10,464 nt of DNA, from positions 1-10,464 of the forward strand of contig JBFMCO010000001.1 in the NCBI GenBank assembly GCA_040754495.1. Direction: 5' to 3'. Both the position numbers and the translations under genes were made by a program. A model generated the notes under the pieces. It had not been told where the DNA came from. It saw only the letters and a program-made list of their open reading frames with translations, and made no database searches. Source of the stretch: Candidatus Micrarchaeota archaeon (lineage in GTDB: Archaea; Micrarchaeota; Micrarchaeia; Anstonellales; Bilamarchaeaceae). Below are positions 92-10,464 of the stretch, one piece after another. The first letter of the stretch is position 1. Every line of letters begins with the position of its first letter.

Positions 92-1369
92 ATGGAGGTT
101 CTGCTGCCGTTACTCCTTACGTTGCCTCCGGCATCGGGCGCCATGATCGCCCTCGCCCTGGGCCTGGGGGTGCTCATGGTCGGCGGCATGTTCATGATAG
201 CATACGGGATGCAGAACCCCCAGCTCGTCGCCCTTGCGAGGGAGGAGCTGGCCGCCCTGATTTTCTCGGTCATCATCCTCATGTTCTTCATCGGCTCTGA
301 CACCATGCTCAACAGCATCGTAAGCGGCATCGTAGTGTCAACGCTGCCGCCGGATTTGCAGGGCTTTGCAGGCACGGCCACTCTCGGCGGCCTCACGCAG
401 AGCCATCTCAACCTGGCCCTGGCCTCCCTCGGCCTCATAGAGGAGAAGCTCAAGGACCAGTACAAGGACCTCTACATGTTCGAGATGCTGATAGGGTTCC
501 TCTCGACAATCAGCTTCCCGCTCGGCTCCCCGGTCCCGGCGGTCAACGTCATATCATTCTCGCTCGCACCCTTCACGGGCCTCAGCCTCCTCAGCCAGGC
601 GCACACCGTGATAGTCGAATCCATAGGCTACCTCATAACCGTGCTCTGGGCCAAGCAGTTCATACTCATATTCGCGCGCGACGCCGTCCCCATTCTCCTC
701 TTCCCGCTCGGCCTCGTGCTGCGGGTCATCCCCTTCTTCAGGAGGACCGGCTCCAGCGTCATAGCCGTGGCCTTCGCGATGTACTTCATCATGCCGTTTG
801 CCATCATACTCTCCAACTACCTCATCTTCGACGTGTTCAGGCCCGCGGATTTCGCCTACACGCCGAGCGCCGCGAGCTATTTCGGCACCGAGAGGAGCAG
901 GGACCAGGTCCACGGCCAGATCAACGAGGGCCGCGAGGGCGAGGCCGCGCACAACATGCTTGACCAGTTCTTCTCCCCGAGCGTGGTGGGAGAAGCCTCC
1001 GACGACGCCTCGGACGAGTGCTCGGGCAACGCCATTGTCCGGATGCTGTGCAGCGTGAAGAACGTCGTGTCCAGCGCCTTCACCGTCATAAGCGGCTTCG
1101 TCAGGACGGTCTGGAACATATGGAGGTTCATGGTGGGCATGACCGGGGACTTCTTCTGGACCGCGTTCAACAACCCGCTCATGCCGGCAAGCGCCTCGGC
1201 CGGGCTCTTCCATTTCATCATACAGGAGGTAGCCCTAATCAGCCCCTTCATCATCCTCGTGATGCTCACCACAGTGCTTGAAATCATCATAACAGTCACC
1301 GGATACCGGAGCATCGCGCTCCTCATCGGCGGCGAAGCCGAGATAGTGGGCCTTACGAAGGTGGTGTAG
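92..1369 (+). CDS. Multi-pass membrane protein, paralog 1 of 6 (uncharacterised; possibly CedA/VirB6-like), 425 aa
   Basis: Long ORF with strong GC3 bias and several hydrophobic segments. N-terminal hairpin MIAYGMQNPQLVALAREELAALIFS, core motif FPLGLVLRVIPFFRRTG (R codon at 722), C-terminal tail IGGEAEIVGLTKVV. Stop TAG 1367-1369 abuts the next ATG at 1370. Confidence 0.85.
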   Translation: MEVLLPLLLTLPPASGAMIALALGLGVLMVGGMFMIAYGMQNPQLVALAREELAALIFSVIILMFFIGSDTMLNSIVSGIVVSTLPPDLQGFAGTATLGGLTQSHLNLALASLGLIEEKLKDQYKDLYMFEMLIGFLSTISFPLGSPVPAVNVISFSLAPFTGLSLLSQAHTVIVESIGYLITVLWAKQFILIFARDAVPILLFPLGLVLRVIPFFRRTGSSVIAVAFAMYFIMPFAIILSNYLIFDVFRPADFAYTPSAASYFGTERSRDQVHGQINEGREGEAAHNMLDQFFSPSVVGEASDDASDECSGNAIVRMLCSVKNVVSSAFTVISGFVRTVWNIWRFMVGMTGDFFWTAFNNPLMPASASAGLFHFIIQEVALISPFIILVMLTTVLEIIITVTGYRSIALLIGGEAEIVGLTKVV

Positions 1370-2947
1370 ATGAGGCACGCGCTCCTGTTCATCCTGTTGG
1401 CCGCCCTTTCGATGGGCCAGCCCTTCTTCACCGAGCAGCCCAGGGAGCCGACGACGACCGTCATAGACCAGGTGACGGTGATAATGCAGATAATCATCCC
1501 CCTGATGCTCACCTTAGTCGCCGTCGCGGTCGCCGTCTACATGGCCGGCCAGATGTTCGGGGCCGAGACGCGCGCCCGGGCCACGGTGTGGGCGCACGGC
1601 GTGCTGGTCGCGGTGGGCATTTCCGCGGCGATGATAGCGGCGGTTTACATCGTCCTTCCGGGCTTCTTCAGCGGAAACATAACCGACTTCGACGTCGTCC
1701 AGAAAATCGTCCAGCTCCGGAACCTGGCCGCATCGGTCCTGGTCGCCCTCACCCTCGTCCTCGTAATCGTGGCCGGAGCGGTCTATGCGGCCGGCATGAT
1801 GGCAGGGGCCGAGACGCGAGCCAGGGCCAGCGCATGGTCGTCCGGCCTCATCAGCGGCGCGATTTTCACATCCGTCCTGTACGTGCTCATCGGCCAGCTG
1901 TTCCCGGCTGCCGGCGGTGCATTGGAGGCAGCCCTGGCAGTGGCGATTCCCGGAGCGCCTGCTGGCCTCGGCCTGTACGCATTCACCGTCGTGCAGATAG
2001 TCGCGTTCGTGGCCTTTTTCATCCTGATAACCTATCTCATGTCGAAGGTCTTCAAGGTTCCTGAGTGGGAGGCATACCTCAGCATAGAGCTCTCCAGCCT
2101 CATGAGCTCGTTCCTCCTGGTCTTCTTCGTGCTCGGCATGTTCGCGGTTGGGAGCGCAGTGGTCATGGTCTACAGCGGCGGGGGCACCACCAGCCCGCCG
2201 CAGGCGGCCATCGGCTTCATGCAGGGGACGGTCGTGGACAGCACGCTCATGGCTACCATCGACGTCTACAAGATACAGGCATGCACCTCCATCCTCTCCA
2301 CGTTCTCGAGGCGTATCGGCGAGTTCGTGCTCACGCAGACCTACAAGGTCTTCCCCGGCCTCGACACCTTCGTCTCGATAACAAACGTCCTGGGGTTCAC
2401 ACTTCTCTCGCTCTACAACACGGCGAAGGTGCAGGTAATCCTCATGTACGTTGTCGACTCCTTCGTCCTCCCGTTCATACTCCCGGCGGGGCTGGTGCTG
2501 AGGTTCTTCCCGCCGACAAGGGACGCCGGCGCCTTCCTGATAGCGCTCTCCTTCGGCTTCTACGTGGTCTTCCCCCTGACATACCTCCTGAACGCGAAGA
2601 TATTCGAGGAGGTGGGCGCAAGGGCATACAACGCGCCAGGGGAGCGTCCTGCCGCCCTCATCCAGTCGCTCTGCGGGCCCTTCAAGTACGGGGTGGCGGG
2701 CTTCCTGTTCAACCCGAGCGCCAACCCCATCTACGGCCTGATACCCGGCGGAGCAGTCGTAGGCAACGCCCTCTCAAGAATAGTGTCGGAGGGACTCCTG
2801 AACGCAATCTCCATGGCGGAATTCATCCCCATAATGAAGCATATCGGAAACCTCTCCCTGCTGGCCCTTTTCATGCCGGCGCTCTCGATGATGGTCACTA
2901 TAGCCTTCATAAACGCTATGACCAAATTCATAGTATCAAAGGTGTGA
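1370..2947 (+). CDS. Multi-pass membrane protein, paralog 2 of 6, with signal peptide and two extra N-terminal pilin-like (VirB2/TrbC/CedA1-type) hairpin repeats, 525 aa
   Basis: Signal-peptide-like start MRHALLFILLAALSMG. Two repeats, VYMAGQMFGAETRARATVW and VYAAGMMAGAETRARASAW. Core motif LPAGLVLRFFPPTRDAG (R codon at 2501). Lacks the GG-x-x-x-I-x-GL tail. The CDS is well supported; the pilin-like label is inference. Confidence 0.85.
   Translation: MRHALLFILLAALSMGQPFFTEQPREPTTTVIDQVTVIMQIIIPLMLTLVAVAVAVYMAGQMFGAETRARATVWAHGVLVAVGISAAMIAAVYIVLPGFFSGNITDFDVVQKIVQLRNLAASVLVALTLVLVIVAGAVYAAGMMAGAETRARASAWSSGLISGAIFTSVLYVLIGQLFPAAGGALEAALAVAIPGAPAGLGLYAFTVVQIVAFVAFFILITYLMSKVFKVPEWEAYLSIELSSLMSSFLLVFFVLGMFAVGSAVVMVYSGGGTTSPPQAAIGFMQGTVVDSTLMATIDVYKIQACTSILSTFSRRIGEFVLTQTYKVFPGLDTFVSITNVLGFTLLSLYNTAKVQVILMYVVDSFVLPFILPAGLVLRFFPPTRDAGAFLIALSFGFYVVFPLTYLLNAKIFEEVGARAYNAPGERPAALIQSLCGPFKYGVAGFLFNPSANPIYGLIPGGAVVGNALSRIVSEGLLNAISMAEFIPIMKHIGNLSLLALFMPALSMMVTIAFINAMTKFIVSKV
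1490..1906 (+). repeat. Two tandem intragenic repeats, 82 aa (246 nt) apart, in paralog 2
   Basis: GGGGCCGAGACGCGCGCCCGGGCCA at 1559-1583 versus GGGGCCGAGACGCGAGCCAGGGCCA at 1805-1829, both encoding GAETRARA between two hydrophobic helices. The outer boundaries given are approximate. Confidence 0.85.
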
Positions 2948-2948
2948 C

Positions 2949-4391
2949 ATGGCATTCCTGGACCTCTGGACGAGCTGGCTTTGGTTCGCGGGCATTTCGC
3001 TCGGCCTAGCCACGATACTCTCCGCCATAGTCTGGATGCTCTCCGAGCTGCTGCAGAACGACAAGATGAAGGGCTGGGCCAAGATGGAGCTTACCGAGGT
3101 GGTCTATTCGGCCATCATCATCTCTATGGCGGTCACCGGCCTCCCGCTCATAGACGGCGTCGTGCAGGGTGCGCTCGGCGTCTCGAACGTGGGCGGCACG
3201 GGCGGGGGGATGCCCGGCTGCGCCGGGAGCCCTACGAGCTTCTGGATTCCGACCACCGACTACGGGACGTTCAACACGGTCCAGCGCTACGAGTGCCTGG
3301 ACATATGCGGCGAGGCCATCGCGGCGAGCAACATCTCCGTCTATCACGGCGTCGAGTCCTGCCACCTGCGCCTCGGCATATGGTACCTGCGCGAGGTCTT
3401 CGACGAGGCCAAGACGTTCATCTTCGACATCTACCTCAGCTACATCAAGACCTCCATGATAGCCGAGTTCACGATAAACATAGAGTTCCTCTTCGAGAAG
3501 GCCGGCTTCTTCACCTTCACCCCCTGGAAGGGCTTCTACACGATGGGCAACAAGGTGAAGGAGCTCGTCTTCGACTGGACGATAAAGCTGATGATGCTGA
3601 CGAAATTCCAGGAGGTCATGCTCCGCTTCATAGCCACCGCCCTCTTCCCAGCCCTCTTCGTGGCCGGGGCGATGCTGCGCACCTTCACATTCACGCGCCG
3701 CCTCGGCGGCCTGCTCCTTGCGATGGCCATAGCGCTGTATTTCGTGTTCCCGGCCTTCTATTCGTTCGGCGCGCTGATAATGCTGGATTTGAAGAACGAC
3801 CCGCAGGTAAGGGACGCGTGGGCCAACAGCGATACCAATCCCGGCTACAGCAGCCCCACCCTCACCCCCGCCGATTTCCCGGACCCGCCGATTGCCAACA
3901 CCATGTACCTGAGGGGCGACATACCGATGCCGGGCGGAGGGAGGACGAACTTCACCTCCGATGAGGCGAGGGCGCAGCTGCGCAACTACGAGGGCATGAG
4001 TTCCACGGAGTACTACCAGATGATGGAGCAGGCAAGGGACAGCCAGGGCAATGCCCTTATGCCCATGACCGACCCCACCACCGGCAGGATGACGGACCTC
4101 TCCAGCCGCGCGCATGCCACGGCCACAGAGGCCGAGCAGAACGAGTCACTCGCCCGCGCGAGGGCCGAGGCCGACAACTGGTTCGGCAGCGTCTCGCGCG
4201 AGAGCAAGCTCGACAAGTTCATTAATTTCGCATGGGAGCCGAACGGCCCGCTGGACACCCTGGGCCGCCTGACCTTCTGGTCGGTGTTCTTCGCGCTCTT
4301 CGGGATAATCGGGACGATTGCGGCAATCCGGTCGCTCTCGGTCACATTCGGAGGCGACATCGAGATCGCCGGTCTTACGAGGCTGATATGA
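2949..4391 (+). CDS. Multi-pass membrane protein, paralog 3 of 6, with large hydrophilic loops, 480 aa
   Basis: Hairpin VWMLSELLQNDKMKGWAKMELTEVVYS. Cys-containing loop (GCAG...ECLDICG...SCHL). Core motif FVAGAMLRTFTFTRRLG (R codon at 3678). Hydrophilic insert of about 150 aa. Tail FGGDIEIAGLTRLI. 1-nt gap from the previous stop. Confidence 0.85.
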   Translation: MAFLDLWTSWLWFAGISLGLATILSAIVWMLSELLQNDKMKGWAKMELTEVVYSAIIISMAVTGLPLIDGVVQGALGVSNVGGTGGGMPGCAGSPTSFWIPTTDYGTFNTVQRYECLDICGEAIAASNISVYHGVESCHLRLGIWYLREVFDEAKTFIFDIYLSYIKTSMIAEFTINIEFLFEKAGFFTFTPWKGFYTMGNKVKELVFDWTIKLMMLTKFQEVMLRFIATALFPALFVAGAMLRTFTFTRRLGGLLLAMAIALYFVFPAFYSFGALIMLDLKNDPQVRDAWANSDTNPGYSSPTLTPADFPDPPIANTMYLRGDIPMPGGGRTNFTSDEARAQLRNYEGMSSTEYYQMMEQARDSQGNALMPMTDPTTGRMTDLSSRAHATATEAEQNESLARARAEADNWFGSVSRESKLDKFINFAWEPNGPLDTLGRLTFWSVFFALFGIIGTIAAIRSLSVTFGGDIEIAGLTRLI

Positions 4392-4453: not shown

Positions 4454-5686
4454 ATGAAAATGCGGATGCTCGCCCTCCTCCTGCTTATCGCGCCCGCCCT
4501 GCTGGCCACCGACGACGGCTCGCTGAGCGGCTTCTACAACAACACCACCACCTTCATCAGCGGGCAGGGGAGGGACTTCGTCGACGCCTACGGCACGGCC
4601 GGCAGCACCGTCCCGACGACTTTCACGTCCGTCTACGACGCCTTCGGGCCCGGGCAGTGCGGGGACGACTGGATTAACGCCTCGGCCGGGATATCAGGCG
4701 TCATAGGGCTGTGGTACGCGCCTGCAATCCTCGTGACATTCACCGTCCTCCTCGGGGTGGCGATAATCTACATGTGGGGGCAGGTGTTCAACTCCCCCCC
4801 GATGACAGCCCTGGCCAAGGACGAGCTCTTCCAGACCGCGCTCACGGTCGTCCGCGTCGCATTCCTGATAGGGATGCTGGGCGCCGGGGACATCTGGTAC
4901 CAGGTGGGTGCATTGGGGACCTCAGGCACCGACCAGATATACGGCAACCCCAACAACCGCTCGATGATGGACGCGGCGATGGCGTTTGCCAGGCTGATGG
5001 TCAGCGACATGGTCAACCACTACAGCATCCTTATCATGTACAACATGGTCATACACACGCTCTACTCGTCCACGATGTGGGTCGGCGTCACCTGGCGCGC
5101 CATGTACTCGTTCAACCTCGGTCCGGTCCTCAAGCCCCTCGTAGACATCGTAGGGAGCGCTCTCCAGTATCTCTCGCTAGGGATAAGCGAGTGGATGCTC
5201 CACATAGTGACCCTCTGCCTGATAAAGAAATGGACATGGGTCCTGTTCATCCCGATGAGCATGCTCCTCCGCGCATTCCCCTACACGAGAAGCGCGGGCG
5301 AGGCGCTTTTTGCGCTGTGCTTCGCACTGGCCCTGTTCTACCCGTTCATGTTCGTGTTCGATTACGAGGTCCACAAGATCATGAAGTACAACCTCGTGGA
5401 CTCGCAGAAGGCGATGAGCAGCTTCCTGCACAAGAGCGGCATCCTGAGCGTGTTCGGGGCGGCTATAGTGATGATGTTCCTGATGGCAGGGGTTTTCATG
5501 CCATTCTTCCTCGGAGGCGCGCTCACGCTCGCCTTCGAGCTCATACGCAGCGCCGTCTATTACATAGTGATAATGAGCATATTCATGCCATTCATCAATA
5601 TTTTCGTGACGCTCACGGCTGCCAAGGAGATAGCCAACTTCTTCAGAGTGGACGTGAATTTCATGTCGTTCCTGCGGATAATATGA
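4454..5686 (+). CDS. Multi-pass membrane protein, paralog 4 of 6, with signal peptide, about 410 aa (start revised from the ORF track's 4232)
   Basis: ATG 4454 follows GAGG (4442-4445) and gives a signal peptide, MKMRMLALLLLIAPALLA. In-frame ATGs at 4388/4391 overlapping the upstream stop are alternatives. Hairpin IYMWGQVFNSPPMTALAKDELFQTAL, core motif IPMSMLLRAFPYTRSAG (R codon at 5270), degenerate tail FRVDVNFMSFLRII. Confidence 0.8.
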   Translation: MKMRMLALLLLIAPALLATDDGSLSGFYNNTTTFISGQGRDFVDAYGTAGSTVPTTFTSVYDAFGPGQCGDDWINASAGISGVIGLWYAPAILVTFTVLLGVAIIYMWGQVFNSPPMTALAKDELFQTALTVVRVAFLIGMLGAGDIWYQVGALGTSGTDQIYGNPNNRSMMDAAMAFARLMVSDMVNHYSILIMYNMVIHTLYSSTMWVGVTWRAMYSFNLGPVLKPLVDIVGSALQYLSLGISEWMLHIVTLCLIKKWTWVLFIPMSMLLRAFPYTRSAGEALFALCFALALFYPFMFVFDYEVHKIMKYNLVDSQKAMSSFLHKSGILSVFGAAIVMMFLMAGVFMPFFLGGALTLAFELIRSAVYYIVIMSIFMPFINIFVTLTAAKEIANFFRVDVNFMSFLRII

Positions 5687-5689
5687 GGT
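5685..5689 (+). promoter_or_regulatory. Shine-Dalgarno-like GAGGT overlapping the paralog 4 stop codon, serving ATG 5696
   Basis: Sequence ATA-TGA-GGT-AATGAT-ATG: GAGGT ends 6 nt before ATG 5696. Confidence 0.55.
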
Positions 5690-5695
5690 AATGAT

Positions 5696-6832
5696 ATGGC
5701 GATGCTGACACCAGGGGAAATCGTGGCCGGAAGCGCTTCGCTTCCAGGGAGCGAGTTCTACCTCTGGACGTACGCCCTCCTGGCCGTGGGGGCGCTCATG
5801 GTATCCATCGTCCTCCTCGCGTTCATCTACCTGTGGGGCACCCTTTTCAGGAACGCCCAGCTCATCGCCTATGTGAAATCCGAGATGTACGAGCTCGTCG
5901 TCACGGCGGTGCTGATACCGATGATATACGGCGCGGTGGCGGCCATGGGCACGCTGACAATCGGCTCCTTCGTCCCGGCCGAGATGACGCCGGAAGACCC
6001 CGGGGGCGTGGGGACGACCTCGAGCACGCTCATCTACGACGCCGCGGCGCACTACTTCATGCGCGTCGAGCGGGACATGAGCGGATGGCTGGAGATGAAC
6101 TACATCATGAACATGTACGTCGACCAGGTCGCGTCCGTGACGCCGTACGCGAGGCCGCTCGGCGTCGGCCTGGTGGCCTCTCCGATGGCCGGCCTCGCCT
6201 CCCCCCTGAAGCAGCTCCTCTACAACATGAGCGTCGCCCTCTCGCTCGCCTTCGTGATAAACCACGCCCAGCTCGTGGTCTACGTCTTCTCAGTCCACGC
6301 GTTCCTCAAATACTACCTCCCGGTAGGGATATTCCTGCGGGCGTTCACGCCGACGCGCAGGCTCGGCGGGACGCTCATAGGCGTGTCGCTCGCATTCCTG
6401 TTTGTTTTCCCGGCCGTATCGGTCATAACCTATACGATGTTCTACAACAAGGGAGGGGGGCCGCTCGTCACCTTCCGCGGCATGCTCTCGCAGTACATGA
6501 GCGACGGGTGCGACCCGGAGTCCGCCCCGGACAGCATGTGCTTCTCCGGGCATTTCAGCCGGTTCTACGACCGGAACTTCAGCGGCATAGGCGGCGGCGT
6601 CATAGACCTGATAAGCGGCGTGGTCGGCGGCATCGGGAGCCTGCTCCAGAGCGTGGTGGGGAACCTGTTCCTGCTGCTGATGATATTCCCCATATCTGTC
6701 ATCAGTTGGGCATTCGCCATAGGATTCATCGTGCCGGCGTTCAACGTCATCATATTCACGCAGGCGGCAAAGTCGCTCAGCAAGAGCTTCGGGGAAGAGG
6801 TTGACATAAGCTCGCTAACGAGGATGATTTAG
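5696..6832 (+). CDS. Multi-pass membrane protein, paralog 5 of 6, 378 aa
   Basis: Hairpin IYLWGTLFRNAQLIAYVKSEMYELVVT, core motif LPVGIFLRAFTPTRRLG (R codon at 6338), Cys pair GCDPESAPDSMC, tail FGEEVDISSLTRMI. SD-like GAGGT upstream. Confidence 0.85.
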   Translation: MAMLTPGEIVAGSASLPGSEFYLWTYALLAVGALMVSIVLLAFIYLWGTLFRNAQLIAYVKSEMYELVVTAVLIPMIYGAVAAMGTLTIGSFVPAEMTPEDPGGVGTTSSTLIYDAAAHYFMRVERDMSGWLEMNYIMNMYVDQVASVTPYARPLGVGLVASPMAGLASPLKQLLYNMSVALSLAFVINHAQLVVYVFSVHAFLKYYLPVGIFLRAFTPTRRLGGTLIGVSLAFLFVFPAVSVITYTMFYNKGGGPLVTFRGMLSQYMSDGCDPESAPDSMCFSGHFSRFYDRNFSGIGGGVIDLISGVVGGIGSLLQSVVGNLFLLLMIFPISVISWAFAIGFIVPAFNVIIFTQAAKSLSKSFGEEVDISSLTRMI

Positions 6833-6834
6833 GG

Positions 6835-7893
6835 ATGGTGGACTTCACAAGCAGCTTCTACGGATATGACGACTGGAAGACGATATCCATAGGAGCGGCA
6901 GCCATCTCAATCATCGGCTCGGCGGCCCTCATCATGCTCTCCCGCCTCTTCAGCCTGCGCAGCCTGGAGCAGGTCGCGAAGACCGAGTTCGTCTATGCCG
7001 CATCCACCGTGCTCATCGTCATCATGGCGGTGGGCATGATACAGATAGCCGAGCCCCGCCTCGCCGGCCCGGACAACAGCCTCGCCCGCTGCCTCTACCT
7101 CGCCTCCTTCGGGCTCAACTGCACCGACCCTGCCACGTTCACCAACCAGACGACGCTCATAGACTGGATGAAGCTCTACATGGCGACGCCCACGAAATGC
7201 GTGCAGACGTTCATGAACGTCCTCTACGCCCTGGAAGTGCCCATAGCCGCCATGACCTCGGTGTACATGGAGATATTCATGAGCGAGCACGCCTCGGGCT
7301 TCGGCGTGAAGTGGATAGAGGAGCGCATCATGAACGCGACGGCGTCGTTCTCGTTCTACATGTACATGTTCTACCTCATGGTCCATGTGCTCAATTTCAT
7401 CAAGTTCTACGCCGGGTTCTTCTTCTCCATAGGCGTAGCCCTGCGTGCCTTCCCGCCGACCCGCGGCGCAGGCGCGTACCTGATGGCCATCTCCTTCGGC
7501 CTCTACTTCGTCTTCCCCCTCGCCTACATCCTGATAGCCACGCTCGGCCTCCCGCACGCGCAGTCCAACATCCTTTCCTTCAGCTCGAGCGCCGCAGGAG
7601 GGCCCGAATACATCTGCGCGCTTCCGGAAGTGCCCGACATCCAGCCCTACGCGTGCGGCACGGCGGACCCGAGCCGCTTCATGGAGTTCCGCGACGTCAT
7701 CCTCGCGAACCGGGCCCAGCTCGGCGACATGCTCACCCTGCGCCTGCCCGACTTCGAGCGCAACCTCGCCCACTCTATATGCATATTCCCGATGATCGCG
7801 TTCGTGGTGCTCCTGACGTTCGTCCTCAACGGCACCAACCTCTTCGGCGGGAACATCCCGGAGATAGGGCGCGGGCTGGTAAAACTGATATAG
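6835..7893 (+). CDS. Multi-pass membrane protein, paralog 6 of 6, 352 aa
   Basis: Hairpin LIMLSRLFSLRSLEQVAKTEFVYAAST, core motif FSIGVALRAFPPTRGAG (R codon at 7444), several loop cysteines, tail FGGNIPEIGRGLVKLI. 2-nt gap from the previous stop. Confidence 0.85.
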   Translation: MVDFTSSFYGYDDWKTISIGAAAISIIGSAALIMLSRLFSLRSLEQVAKTEFVYAASTVLIVIMAVGMIQIAEPRLAGPDNSLARCLYLASFGLNCTDPATFTNQTTLIDWMKLYMATPTKCVQTFMNVLYALEVPIAAMTSVYMEIFMSEHASGFGVKWIEERIMNATASFSFYMYMFYLMVHVLNFIKFYAGFFFSIGVALRAFPPTRGAGAYLMAISFGLYFVFPLAYILIATLGLPHAQSNILSFSSSAAGGPEYICALPEVPDIQPYACGTADPSRFMEFRDVILANRAQLGDMLTLRLPDFERNLAHSICIFPMIAFVVLLTFVLNGTNLFGGNIPEIGRGLVKLI

Positions 7894-7896
7894 CTG

Positions 7897-8838
7897 ATGA
7901 TTATGGGAGGAGAAAGGGTAAGGACAACCAGCGAATCTGCCGGGCGGCACGGCCAGGCCGAGCAGGCTCCTCCGCAGATGGAAACCGTATCCCCCCAGCG
8001 CCGGGCCCAGCTCGAAGCGAGCCTGAACTACCCTAACAATCCCGGATACCACACGCTGCGCAGCCCGGCTGCCGGCTCGCGCTCGTCTGAGCTGATGGCG
8101 CTCCGCGGCCTCGCCCCGGCCAACCCGGCCCTGCTGTCATTTGCCGATGCCCTCTACCAGCCCGAATTCGTGCACCTCATCCCGGCAAGGCAGGCGCGGC
8201 GGGCGGAAGCCCTCTCGCTGGAGATATTCCGCAGATACCTTTCAAGATACGCCGCCAGCGGGTTGGATGAGAACAACGCAGTCGTGTGGGCCAAGATGGA
8301 CCTGACCAGGACCTACATCGCAAGCACCGAGAACCAGCATAACACGTGGAACGTCCAGCCGATAGTGTACAATCAGACGCATATGAAGGGCGGGCGGTGC
8401 CTGCCCCGGTTCATAGCGGCATTGCACGAGTTCATGCACGTGGAGGAAACGCCCCGGGGGGCCGCGATGGGGTGGGATGCGGTGCCGTCCCCACCCCCTG
8501 CGCAAGCCGCGGGGCCCGTAAGCTCAGTGCAGGCTGCTGCCGGAGGGCCGAGTATCGAGATGCTCAGCGAGCTGATGCCGACAATCATGACGCTCGTGCT
8601 TTCCGACGAGGTGTATAAGCGGCTGAATAACATCCCCCTCAACCGGGCAGTCAATTACGGGCAGTCGGTGCAGTGGGACGGCCACTCGGTCCAGCTGGGA
8701 CGGGTCGCCAACTTCTACCGCTCCCTGATTGACCGCTACGGCTCGGTAGGGGCCGCGGCCGCCTCTCCTGAATCGCTCGAGTTCATGCGCCAGGGCCGCA
8801 TCCCTCCCGCGATGGTCACCCCGGTGCGCGCGCGGTAG
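7897..8838 (+). CDS. Hypothetical soluble protein with HExxH motif, putative zinc metallopeptidase, 313 aa (alternative start 7903)
   Basis: Starts 3 nt after the paralog 6 stop. FIAALHEFMHVEE (HEFMH at 8425-8439, H177-H181), with a candidate third-ligand Glu in SELMPT (E225, 8569-8571). No obvious signal peptide or long hydrophobic helix. Low-complexity N-terminus and a Pro/Ala-rich insert. Confidence 0.65.
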   Translation: MIMGGERVRTTSESAGRHGQAEQAPPQMETVSPQRRAQLEASLNYPNNPGYHTLRSPAAGSRSSELMALRGLAPANPALLSFADALYQPEFVHLIPARQARRAEALSLEIFRRYLSRYAASGLDENNAVVWAKMDLTRTYIASTENQHNTWNVQPIVYNQTHMKGGRCLPRFIAALHEFMHVEETPRGAAMGWDAVPSPPPAQAAGPVSSVQAAAGGPSIEMLSELMPTIMTLVLSDEVYKRLNNIPLNRAVNYGQSVQWDGHSVQLGRVANFYRSLIDRYGSVGAAAASPESLEFMRQGRIPPAMVTPVRAR

Positions 8839-9484: not shown

Positions 9485-10340
9485 ATGAGAGCTATTCCCG
9501 CAAGGTTTTACATGCGGCCTACTGTGCTCCTGGCCATCCTGGCTCTGGCAGGCATCTCGTTCACGGCAAGCATTTCAGGCTGCCAGCAGATAGACAACGT
9601 GACCGATACCACCTACGCCCTCGCGAACAACCTAGTCGGCGCGAACATCAGCGCGTCTCCATTCGGCGGCAACGCGTGCCTGAAAATCGTCTCCTCAAAC
9701 ATCGTCCTGGACTGCAACGGCTACAACATCACCGACAGCGTCGGAACTACGAGCTACGGTATCCTCCTCAACGGCTCCCTGACCAACGTCACGGTGAAGA
9801 ACTGCCCTAGGATATTCGACTATAGCTACGGGCTGTACTCATACCGCACCAAATCAAGCGCATTCTACAACAATTCAGCCAGAAACAGTGGCAGCACAGG
9901 TATCTATCTTGATGAAACTAACGAAAGCCTGTTCGTCAACAACAGCGTCAACGGCAGCACCTACGGCTTCTACCTCTCATCAAGCCACGACAATAGCCTC
10001 ATCAACAATAGCGGCGTCGGCGCAACCTTTGCCTTCTACGTCTCATCAAGCCACAACAACAACTTCACGGATAACCTTGCAATCCCGGCCAACAGCTACG
10101 GCTTCTACCTCACATCAAGCCACAACAACAGCCTCAGGAACAGCACGTTCAGCAACGCATACTACGGCTTCTACCTCTCATCAAGCCACAACAACACGAT
10201 GCTGGACAGCGCCTTCAGGACCAACAACGGCTACGGCATCACCCTCTCGGGCAGCCACAACAACACCATGGGCAACGTCAGCATCAACAACTCCTACTAC
10301 GGTTTCTATATCGCAAGCTCGAGCCATAACAACACGGTTG
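9485..10340 (+). pseudogene. Secreted right-handed parallel beta-helix (NosD/CASH-like) surface protein, interrupted by an IS3-family element at 10341; not in the ORF track because the frame has no stop in the window
   Basis: My translation from 9485: MRAIPARFYMRPTVLLAILALAGISFTASISGCQQIDNVTDTTYALANNLVG...CLKIVSSNIVLDCNGYNIT...YGILLNGSLTNVTVKNC, then YGFYLSSSHNN coils. Signal peptide (start may be ATG 9512), typical LDCNGY motif, many N-x-S/T sequons. Native-looking sequence ends at about 10340. Confidence 0.8.
9962..10333 (+). repeat. Six intragenic beta-helix coil repeats (TACGGCTTCTACCTCTCATCAAGCCACAACAAC consensus)
   Basis: Copies start at 9962, 10028, 10097, 10163, 10232 and 10298 (spacings 66, 69, 66, 69, 66 nt). 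All are in frame and encode YGFYLSSSH(N/D)N variants. Confidence 0.85.
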
Positions 10341-10464
10341 TGGACTGCACCCCTAAAAGTGGACAATTAGAAAAGACTCATCCCACTATTGAAAAGGGGT
10401 GCAAAAATGAAATTGAAGCGCAGGTTCACGAGAGAATTCAAGCTGGCAGTAGTACGGGAGCTGC
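10341..10464 (+). mobile_element. IS3-family insertion sequence (IS150-like end), left end, truncated by the window edge
   Basis: TGGACTGCACCCCTAAAAGTGGACA (10341-10365) fits the TG-x-ACTGCACCC...TGGAC pattern I recall for IS3/IS150-group terminal inverted repeats. The sequence turns abruptly AT-rich, the host coil pattern stops, and an SD plus an IS3 orfA-like ORF follow. Confidence 0.85.
10407..10464 (+). CDS. IS3-family transposase OrfA N-terminus (HTH_Tnp_1-like), partial
   Basis: ATG 10407 after SD-like AGGGGTG (10395-10401). Translates MKLKRRFTREFKLAVVREL, matching the typical OrfA start R-x-(F/Y)-(S/T)-x-E-F-K-x-x-x-V. Only 19 codons are visible. Confidence 0.8.
   Translation, partial: MKLKRRFTREFKLAVVREL

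Follow-up and report, generated by a model that had tools for sequence, protein, structure and literature searches.

We examined a 10,464-base contig of a Candidatus Micrarchaeota archaeon (JBFMCO010000001.1 of assembly GCA_040754495.1; hereafter the window, which is the entire contig), in which six abutting forward-strand genes encode related polytopic membrane proteins. The second of these, paralog 2, carries two tandem helix-loop-helix modules—R1 and R2, each centred on the motif GAETRARA—between a signal peptide and the region that it shares with its neighbours. Judged by profile comparison, the modules are homologous to small, free pilin-like proteins, and both copies have long been conserved; the two-module fusion is lineage-specific, and separate lineages have independently acquired the module on paralogs 2, 4, and 6. 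The best explanation, to which we give an even chance, is that tandem modules of the VirB2/T4SS_pilin class are fused to one subunit of a six-paralog platform and act there as built-in protomers. The six-paralog complex is chromosomal, kept across one Micrarchaeota family, and distantly CedA/CedE (VirB6)-like.

Two homologous repeats in paralog 2

An initial annotation of the window described two GAETRARA repeats behind a signal peptide, and this description holds: the motifs start at residues 64 and 146 of paralog 2 (codons 1559 and 1805), 82 amino acids (aa) apart, and are preceded by a cleavable-looking signal peptide that is kept in the ortholog consensus, its cleavage being presumed. Residues 30–112 and 113–195 are 52% identical over 46 aa (BLASTP, E = 1e-10), and sub-profiles of R1 and R2 drawn from 117 orthologs match each other in hhalign at 99.8% (E = 1e-27). 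An AlphaFold2 model of paralog 2 built on these 117 orthologs (predicted local distance difference test, pLDDT, 89.5; predicted template modelling score, pTM, 0.78) contains helix-turn-helix units at residues 27–62/65–95, 109–144/147–192, and 200–228/231–269, the last being the N-terminal hairpin found throughout the paralog family. Each module consists of an amphipathic helix, a hydrophobic helix, a conserved short E-x-R-x-R loop, and a second hydrophobic helix. No DNA-level repeat between R1 and R2 remains in the window, and the duplication is thus old. Searching with residues 190–525 recovered 177 homologs (E <= 0.001), those listed being mostly 497–581 aa long and from Micrarchaeota where named.

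With homology, profile, and model evidence in agreement, we regard the two repeats as solid, whereas other regularities proposed for this region are not, given their spacing and counts among orthologs. The distance between R1 and R2 is 82–83 aa in 68/117 orthologs, but the same period had been said to reach the third hairpin, and there it breaks down: R2 and the third hairpin are 75–77 aa apart in most orthologs, the distance being longer only in the window's own protein (85 aa by our anchors). Likewise, the N-I-T sequon noted in the linker between R1 and R2 is present in paralog 2 but not conserved, with a sequon of any kind in only seven of 117 orthologs. Positive charges were noted in the GAETRARA loop; loops 1 and 2 have a net charge of +1, and loop 3 of about 0.

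A family of free GAETRARA proteins

An exhaustive phmmer search with residues 30–195 against 1.8 billion representative sequences returned about 20 fused proteins (510–570 aa), along with over 100 free ones measuring 90–170 aa. The free proteins, which make up a large family of secreted Micrarchaeota proteins with two helices, consist of a signal peptide, a Cys-bearing amphipathic helix, a hydrophobic helix, a loop with the consensus Y-A-x-G-Q-x-x-G-A-E-T-R-A-R-A-x-V-W-A, another hydrophobic helix, and a Cys in the C-terminal tail; 79 of 81 have both this Cys and the one in the N-terminal helix. Their profile matches R1 in hhalign at 99.6% (E = 1e-24) and R2 at 99.8% (E = 2e-27), and the helices of a free-protein model span residues 35–73 and 76–111. 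The existence of stand-alone proteins of about 100 aa, mentioned in the initial annotation, is thus borne out, both by this large family and by a 124-aa member encoded in the source genome itself (contig 46, 49269–49640; L002:1471–1845, minus strand). The latter gene is flanked by an IS200/IS605-type TnpB-like open reading frame (ORF) and a gene for a large polytopic glycosyltransferase-like protein, outside any secretion cluster. Elsewhere in Micrarchaeota, free pilin genes occur in tandem arrays, up to four in a row.

Two further kinds of small pilin-like protein were noted in passing. On contig 68 of the source genome, two tandem genes (16476–16781 and 16769–17002; L016:1408–1713 and 1701–1934, plus strand) encode small proteins that fall into another T4SS_pilin subfamily, and one of them scores 31.1 bits, above the family cut-off; with Dcm-like cytosine methyltransferase and Vsr-like endonuclease genes next to it, the pair may belong to a mobile element. 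Four proteins from other metagenomes (P0092, P0117, P0127, and P0131) have a single pilin module followed by large Cys-rich or immunoglobulin (Ig)-like C-terminal domains, an architecture which suggests that some pilins may display adhesin-like domains on the outside. A 649-aa protein with seven matched stretches (P0044) was discarded as a false positive caused by low complexity.

Resemblance to VirB2-class pilins

The proposal that the repeats are pilins of the VirB2 class draws support from the free family. We scanned 121 Micrarchaeota genomes in six frames—a set that includes one unpublished genome (G029), on which no individual claim depends, and was also used for the ortholog counts below—with the T4SS_pilin profile PF18895, whose curated cut-off is 26.6 bits, and obtained a match in 76 genomes, exceeding the cut-off in 29. 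GAETRARA-type proteins of relatives score above it at 32.8, 32.3, 30.6, 29.8, 29.3, 28.5, 27.4, 26.9, and 26.7 bits. Of 87 free members, 24 match PF18895 and 12 match PF04956 (TrbC; best E = 1.1e-6) in Pfam at E <= 0.01, and eight match the NCBIfam TrwL/VirB2 model NF033899 (best E = 1.9e-5). The TrwL model is also the sole NCBIfam match of whole paralog 2 (P0001; E = 0.0055, residues 9–92, near full-length). All PF04956 and TrwL matches lie under the curated cut-offs. Neighbours of the free protein in the ESM Atlas are clusters named TrbC/VirB2 or bearing PF18895 or PF04956, and the model of R1 superimposes on the representative of a PF18895 Atlas cluster with a root-mean-square deviation (rmsd) of 1.5 Å over 68 aa. 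Modules and free proteins also display the architecture of the class, namely a signal peptide followed by an amphipathic helix and by two hydrophobic helices that a short charged loop connects, within a mature length of about 70–100 aa. PF18895 is treated as a VirB2-like profile in the literature (PMC12102498). On these sequence and model comparisons, we consider it likely that the modules are homologous to the VirB2-like class.

Distribution of the fusion across lineages

Searching the 121 genomes with the body of paralog 2 (residues 200–525) identified orthologs in 24, comprising all 23 members of the source organism's GTDB family and one other. Both modules are present in 11 of the 24, in open frames of 510–535 aa from two genera. 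In a second lineage, represented by a 526-kb contig with the same synteny, a bare paralog 2 of 328 aa shares 43% identity with residues 217–525, and it is paralog 6 that bears one module, matching the free pilins at 99.5%. In a third genome (G104), paralog 2 is again bare, and paralogs 4 and 6 have one module each. A tree of the modules, which with 69 columns is only indicative, resolves an R1 clade, an R2 clade, and a free-pilin clade. A single R1 copy is placed outside its clade, in one protein both repeats pair together within the R1 clade, and the paralog-6 module from the 526-kb contig nests within the free pilins. Since the R1, R2, and free clades are separate and the paralog-6 module falls among the free pilins, the tandem pair appears to be old and the other fusions independent of it.

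The claim that pilin-like domains are joined to one of six paralogous membrane proteins is supported, and we take the repeated fusion of one small protein to different paralogs as the strongest evidence on two counts—that pilin and paralogs belong to one assembly, and that the six paralogs co-assemble. Recurrent fusion of a pilin module to a CedA-like paralog is in this sense "Rosetta stone" evidence that the pilins and the operon form one apparatus.

Points against the favoured explanation, and alternatives

A number of results weigh against tandem VirB2-class modules acting as protomers in a six-paralog platform, beginning with the assignment to the class. The window's own repeats score far under the Pfam cut-off: searches against PF18895, as had been suggested, give 10.1 bits (E = 0.91) for R1 and 8 bits for the R1–R2 piece, and a genome-wide scan gives 10.6 bits at 1451–1624. 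In hhalign, the modules show no similarity to a profile of 120 Agrobacterium-type VirB2 sequences (0.3%). Spurious matches to other transmembrane families, of the kind that hydrophobic hairpins attract, are similarly frequent among the 87 free members (Cyt_bd_oxida_II in 21, Yip1 in 15), with weaker best E-values. Similarity to solved pilin structures (TraA, VirB2, CedA1, or TedC) finds no support: Foldseek/VIA matches include no solved pilin, the top ones being generic helical hairpins (Z <= 8.2) in a fold too simple to discriminate, since a two-helix hairpin matches any hairpin. Foldseek comparison of the full-length and free-pilin models with the PDB returned nothing at E <= 0.001, and sequence searches of the PDB with a free pilin and with free-pilin, paralog-2, and paralog profiles found no relevant match, and no pilin at E <= 10.

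These results, the low scores of the window's own repeats aside, would fit a convergent resemblance to pilins, GAETRARA proteins being an unrelated family of small two-helix membrane proteins whose fusion says nothing about pili. We consider this improbable, because three independent VirB2-class models, PF18895, PF04956, and NF033899, give the lowest best E-values in their respective libraries, with near full-length, collinear alignments; several members exceed a Pfam curated cut-off; eight of the ten best named Atlas neighbours share a family or clan; and the only curated matches of the partner family are CedA/CedE channel proteins.

The identity of the partner is itself faint. Among 39 paralogs, the only NCBIfam matches below 0.01 are to CedE (E = 4.5e-4) and CedA (E = 1.5e-3). 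We tested CedA/CedE/VirB6-like models (NF041796, NF053657, PF04610, and PF19590) on the paralog body, and in a six-frame scan of the whole source genome, the sole matches to the CedA/CedE models were two contig-37 array paralogs, in the conserved core (E = 1e-4 to 7e-4), scoring 18.6 and 21.6 bits where the cut-offs are 330 and 400. That these models hit nothing but paralogs counts in favour of a platform, as do the conserved operon and its synteny. The Pfam VirB6 models TrbL and TrbL_3 do not match the paralogs; the paralogs have no match in Pfam, no window paralog has a significant Pfam or NCBIfam family, and hhalign comparison of the paralogs with one single VirB6 sequence gave no signal. 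Atlas leads for the body are clusters that partly carry CedA1 or TrbL_3, and TrwI/VirB6 (7o3v_F) is among the fold matches of the bundle formed by R2 and the family hairpin, at a level within helical noise (Z = 8.8, rmsd 4.4 Å, 139 aa). Given the faint CedA/CedE scores and the null TrbL models, we describe the body as distantly CedA/VirB6-like at best, and not as a member of either family.

The gene context offers no ATPase. None of the VirB4/HerA-like type adjoins the six-paralog operon in five genomes, and the free pilin arrays of four relatives have neither a paralog nor a HerA/VirB4-like ATPase within about 9 kb. In the source genome, two HerA/VirB4-like ATPases are encoded elsewhere (contigs 71 and 32), and the contig-37 and contig-31 arrays, these ATPases, and a contig-5 pilin are mutually non-adjacent, except that the contig-32 ATPase has a solitary paralog about 4 kb away. 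Modules are, moreover, absent from 13 of the 24 paralog-2 orthologs, whose frames measure 299–353 aa.

The absence of linkage between pilin arrays and paralogs or ATPases, together with the bare orthologs, would also fit modules of pilin origin that today act as nothing more than additional platform hairpins, which might widen or stabilise the ring or bind lipid, with no filament formed and the free GAETRARA proteins acting separately. The distinctness of the R1 and R2 clades from free pilins fits this alternative, as does the lack of any Cys in the module region of 92/117 fused orthologs, in contrast to the Cys pair of nearly all free pilins. On the other hand, the loop signature (Y, G, G, E-x-R-x-R, and W) is near-unchanged in fused and free copies, which a generic anchor would not need, and fresh fusions from free-pilin-like genes recur, as in the paralog-6 module nested among them. 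We judge this alternative somewhat unlikely, though it is the rival that we take most seriously.

Alternatively, paralog 2 might be a polyprotein whose modules, once inserted in the membrane, are cleaved off to yield mature pilins. Processing is typical of VirB2-class pilins. TedC is processed as well (PMC9905601); each module starts with an amphipathic helix like the N-terminus of a mature free pilin, and R2 is followed by stretches of small residues. However, the modules are not separated by any conserved signal-peptidase-like site, the linkers being variable in both length and sequence; fused copies have lost the paired cysteines of free pilins; and R2 and the family hairpin are packed as one bundle in the model. 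We rate release as very improbable.

The family-wide hairpin

The initial annotation also proposed that the N-terminal hairpin of all six paralogs is a degenerate copy of the module, an idea for which we find weak to moderate support. A hairpin profile built without paralog 2 (36–46 paralogs from five to seven genomes) matches the hairpin of paralog 2 in hhalign at 95.9% and R1 at 87% (E = 4e-6, 51–52 collinear columns), with Y-M-x-G aligned on Y-A-x-G, A-K on W-A, and a loop three residues shorter. The R1 match stands above its controls, with P >= 0.026 for other helical segments, scores of 13–18 for reversed profiles, and at most 13.9 for 40 column shuffles, compared with 30.5 for the real alignment. 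The same profile, however, matches R2 at only 22–24%, the merged module profile at 39%, and free pilins at 13–15%, and a profile of paralog-2 hairpins alone shows no similarity to the modules (<= 1.4%). We therefore regard a third, degenerate copy as about evenly balanced on these profile comparisons and not established.

Proposed role and comparison with known systems

If the modules are indeed built-in protomers, the apparatus might be arranged as follows. The six paralogs would form one hetero-oligomeric platform. The signal peptide would place the N-terminus of paralog 2 outside, and each hairpin would be membrane-embedded, its E-x-R-x-R loop (net +1) facing the cytoplasm and its ends and linkers outside; the long, signal-peptide-led N-termini of paralogs are consistent with this loop-in topology. 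The modules may pack against the family hairpin—model residues 108–231 and 113–255 align as a single bundle—and could form a permanent docking or nucleating layer at the platform, to which free GAETRARA pilins, and probably lipids, would add to build a conjugative-type pilus or tube. A complex prediction for the tandem modules with a mature free pilin, run without controls, scored 0.00 and speaks neither for nor against their association.

A more far-reaching possibility, which we rate as unlikely, is that the six-paralog ring with its built-in protomers is the base of a lipid-lined, conjugation-derived tube leading to the host, for uptake of lipids, DNA, or cytoplasm. Were this so, the fused modules would set the symmetry and the start site of the tube, and they could move between subunits in evolution because only their presence in the ring would matter. 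Growth of Micrarchaeota depends on hosts (PMC8975820). The fusion bears on the question of how DPANN archaea make physical contact with their hosts and draw nourishment from them. The fusion also provides concrete constructs and antibodies to seek in cultivated Micrarchaeota. Our literature search found no paper on a pilin-module fusion in this phylum.

To our knowledge, Ced and Ted are the only archaeal conjugation-derived machines described so far. In Crenarchaeota, these comprise a CedA/CedE or TedA channel, a CedA1 or TedC pilin, and a CedB/TedB ATPase (Beltran et al. 2023, PMC9905601), and the N-terminus of CedA is homologous to the CedA1 pilin, as is VirB6 to VirB2 (PMC9905601). The Micrarchaeota system resembles them in being chromosomal and archaeal and in combining a VirB2-like two-helix pilin with a polytopic VirB6-like protein that has a pilin-like N-terminal region; it differs in its six paralogs, where those systems have one or two, in bearing one or two additional complete pilin modules ahead of the family hairpin, and in having no adjacent VirB4-like ATPase, and its scores fall far under the family cut-offs. 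The fusion would extend the published idea of an ancestral hairpin common to VirB6-like proteins and VirB2-like pilins.

With the VirB2, TrbC, and TrwL pilins of bacterial type IV secretion systems (T4SS), the modules and free proteins share a signal peptide, two hydrophobic helices, a short charged loop, and a predicted placement of both ends outside, and the TrwL, TrbC, and T4SS_pilin models are their best matches. They depart from these systems in that no profile-profile link to Agrobacterium VirB2 is detectable, the Pfam TrbL/VirB6 models give nothing, and the pilin is present in duplicate, joined covalently to a paralog. Unlike the cyclised VirB2 and TrbC, the free pilins here have a Cys pair, which might form a disulfide joining both ends and could thus substitute for head-to-tail cyclisation.

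Patescibacteria, which are likewise ultra-small symbionts, encode arrays of VirB2-like pilins (PF18895/PF04956), often near virB4 (PMC12102498). Both groups have numerous small, divergent pilin genes that often lie in tandem, but in the loci that we checked the Micrarchaeota genes are not near virB4, and that study describes no fusion between a pilin and a polytopic paralog. Tandem VirB6 paralogs are known from the rvh system of Rickettsiales (PMC2653234, PMC7648143). By description, that system is similar in that an obligate symbiont has several divergent VirB6-like genes in tandem, which bear large extensions, and different in being bacterial, with clear VirB6 homology and with extensions that are C-terminal and not pilin-like.

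Gene context and additional observations

Coordinates of the paralogs and of the parts of paralog 2 are given in Table 1. All six paralogs have the N-terminal helical hairpin and an invariant L-R-x-F-x-x-T-R-x-x-G core, and five end in a G-L-T-R-x-I-like tail, paralog 2 having a different end. For paralog 4, a longer ORF from 4232 is probably unused.

Table 1. Paralog genes of the window and subdivisions of paralog 2
Feature	Position (residues)	Strand	Description
Paralog 1	92–1369	+	425 aa
Paralog 2 (ORF)	1370–2947	+	525 aa; signal peptide, two pilin-like modules, family body
Signal peptide, predicted cleavable	1370–1417 (~1–16)	+	Hydrophobic core then small residues; model helix 2–14
Pilin-like module R1	1448–1654 (27–95)	+	Loop GAETRARA 1559–1582
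Linker, predicted extracellular	1655–1693 (96–108)	+	N-I-T sequon; non-helical in model
Pilin-like module R2	1694–1945 (109–192)	+	Loop GAETRARA 1805–1828
Family-wide N-terminal hairpin	1967–2176 (200–269)	+	Aligned over 43 paralogs
Paralog body	2177–2944	+	Invariant L-R-x-F-x-x-T-R-x-x-G core 2498–2530; invariant columns L377, R378, R384, G387
Paralog 3	2949–4391	+	480 aa
Paralog 4	4454–5686	+	410 aa, counted from the ATG opening a signal peptide
Paralog 5	5696–6832	+	378 aa
Paralog 6	6835–7893	+	352 aa; ortholog in another lineage bears one pilin module (P0118, 41% identity, E = 3e-84)

The source genome (1.63 Mb, 80% complete) encodes 19 paralogs, in three six-gene arrays and one solitary copy, and pilin modules are confined to the array in the window. 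Synteny around this operon is kept in five genomes, with AspRS upstream in four of the five and PIN_5 and RNA ligase genes downstream in all of them. In the window, the paralogs are followed by a 313-aa ORF, a PIN_5 ribonuclease, and a NosD/beta-helix protein. The 313-aa ORF (7897–8838, plus strand) has no assigned family, and its position between paralog 6 and PIN_5 is occupied by no gene in three relatives, by one opposite-strand methyltransferase gene in L055, and by two extra genes in L023. The NosD/beta-helix repeat protein (9485–10462, plus strand) is secreted, truncated by the contig end, and very rich in N-x-S/T sequons, and is probably a glycosylated surface protein. Opposite the paralog genes, the minus strand contains open frames at 3006–4115, 5177–6265, and 6907–8052 (360–380 aa) whose translations are Arg/Gly/Glu-rich and devoid of membrane-protein features; we take these to be by-products of high G+C content.

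Elsewhere in the source genome, the six-paralog array on contig 31 (30683–41876; L010) includes one member with a Cys-rich insertion of about 400 aa and is followed by a gene for a 1283-aa Cys-rich secreted protein that has no Pfam match. The solitary paralog on contig 32 (42503–50962; L009:4503–12963) lies directly after DsbD and thioredoxin-like genes, and the ATPase about 4 kb from it is a HerA/VirB4-like protein of the DUF87/AAA_10 type. In one relative (L022), DsbD and redoxin genes are found upstream of the six-paralog operon.

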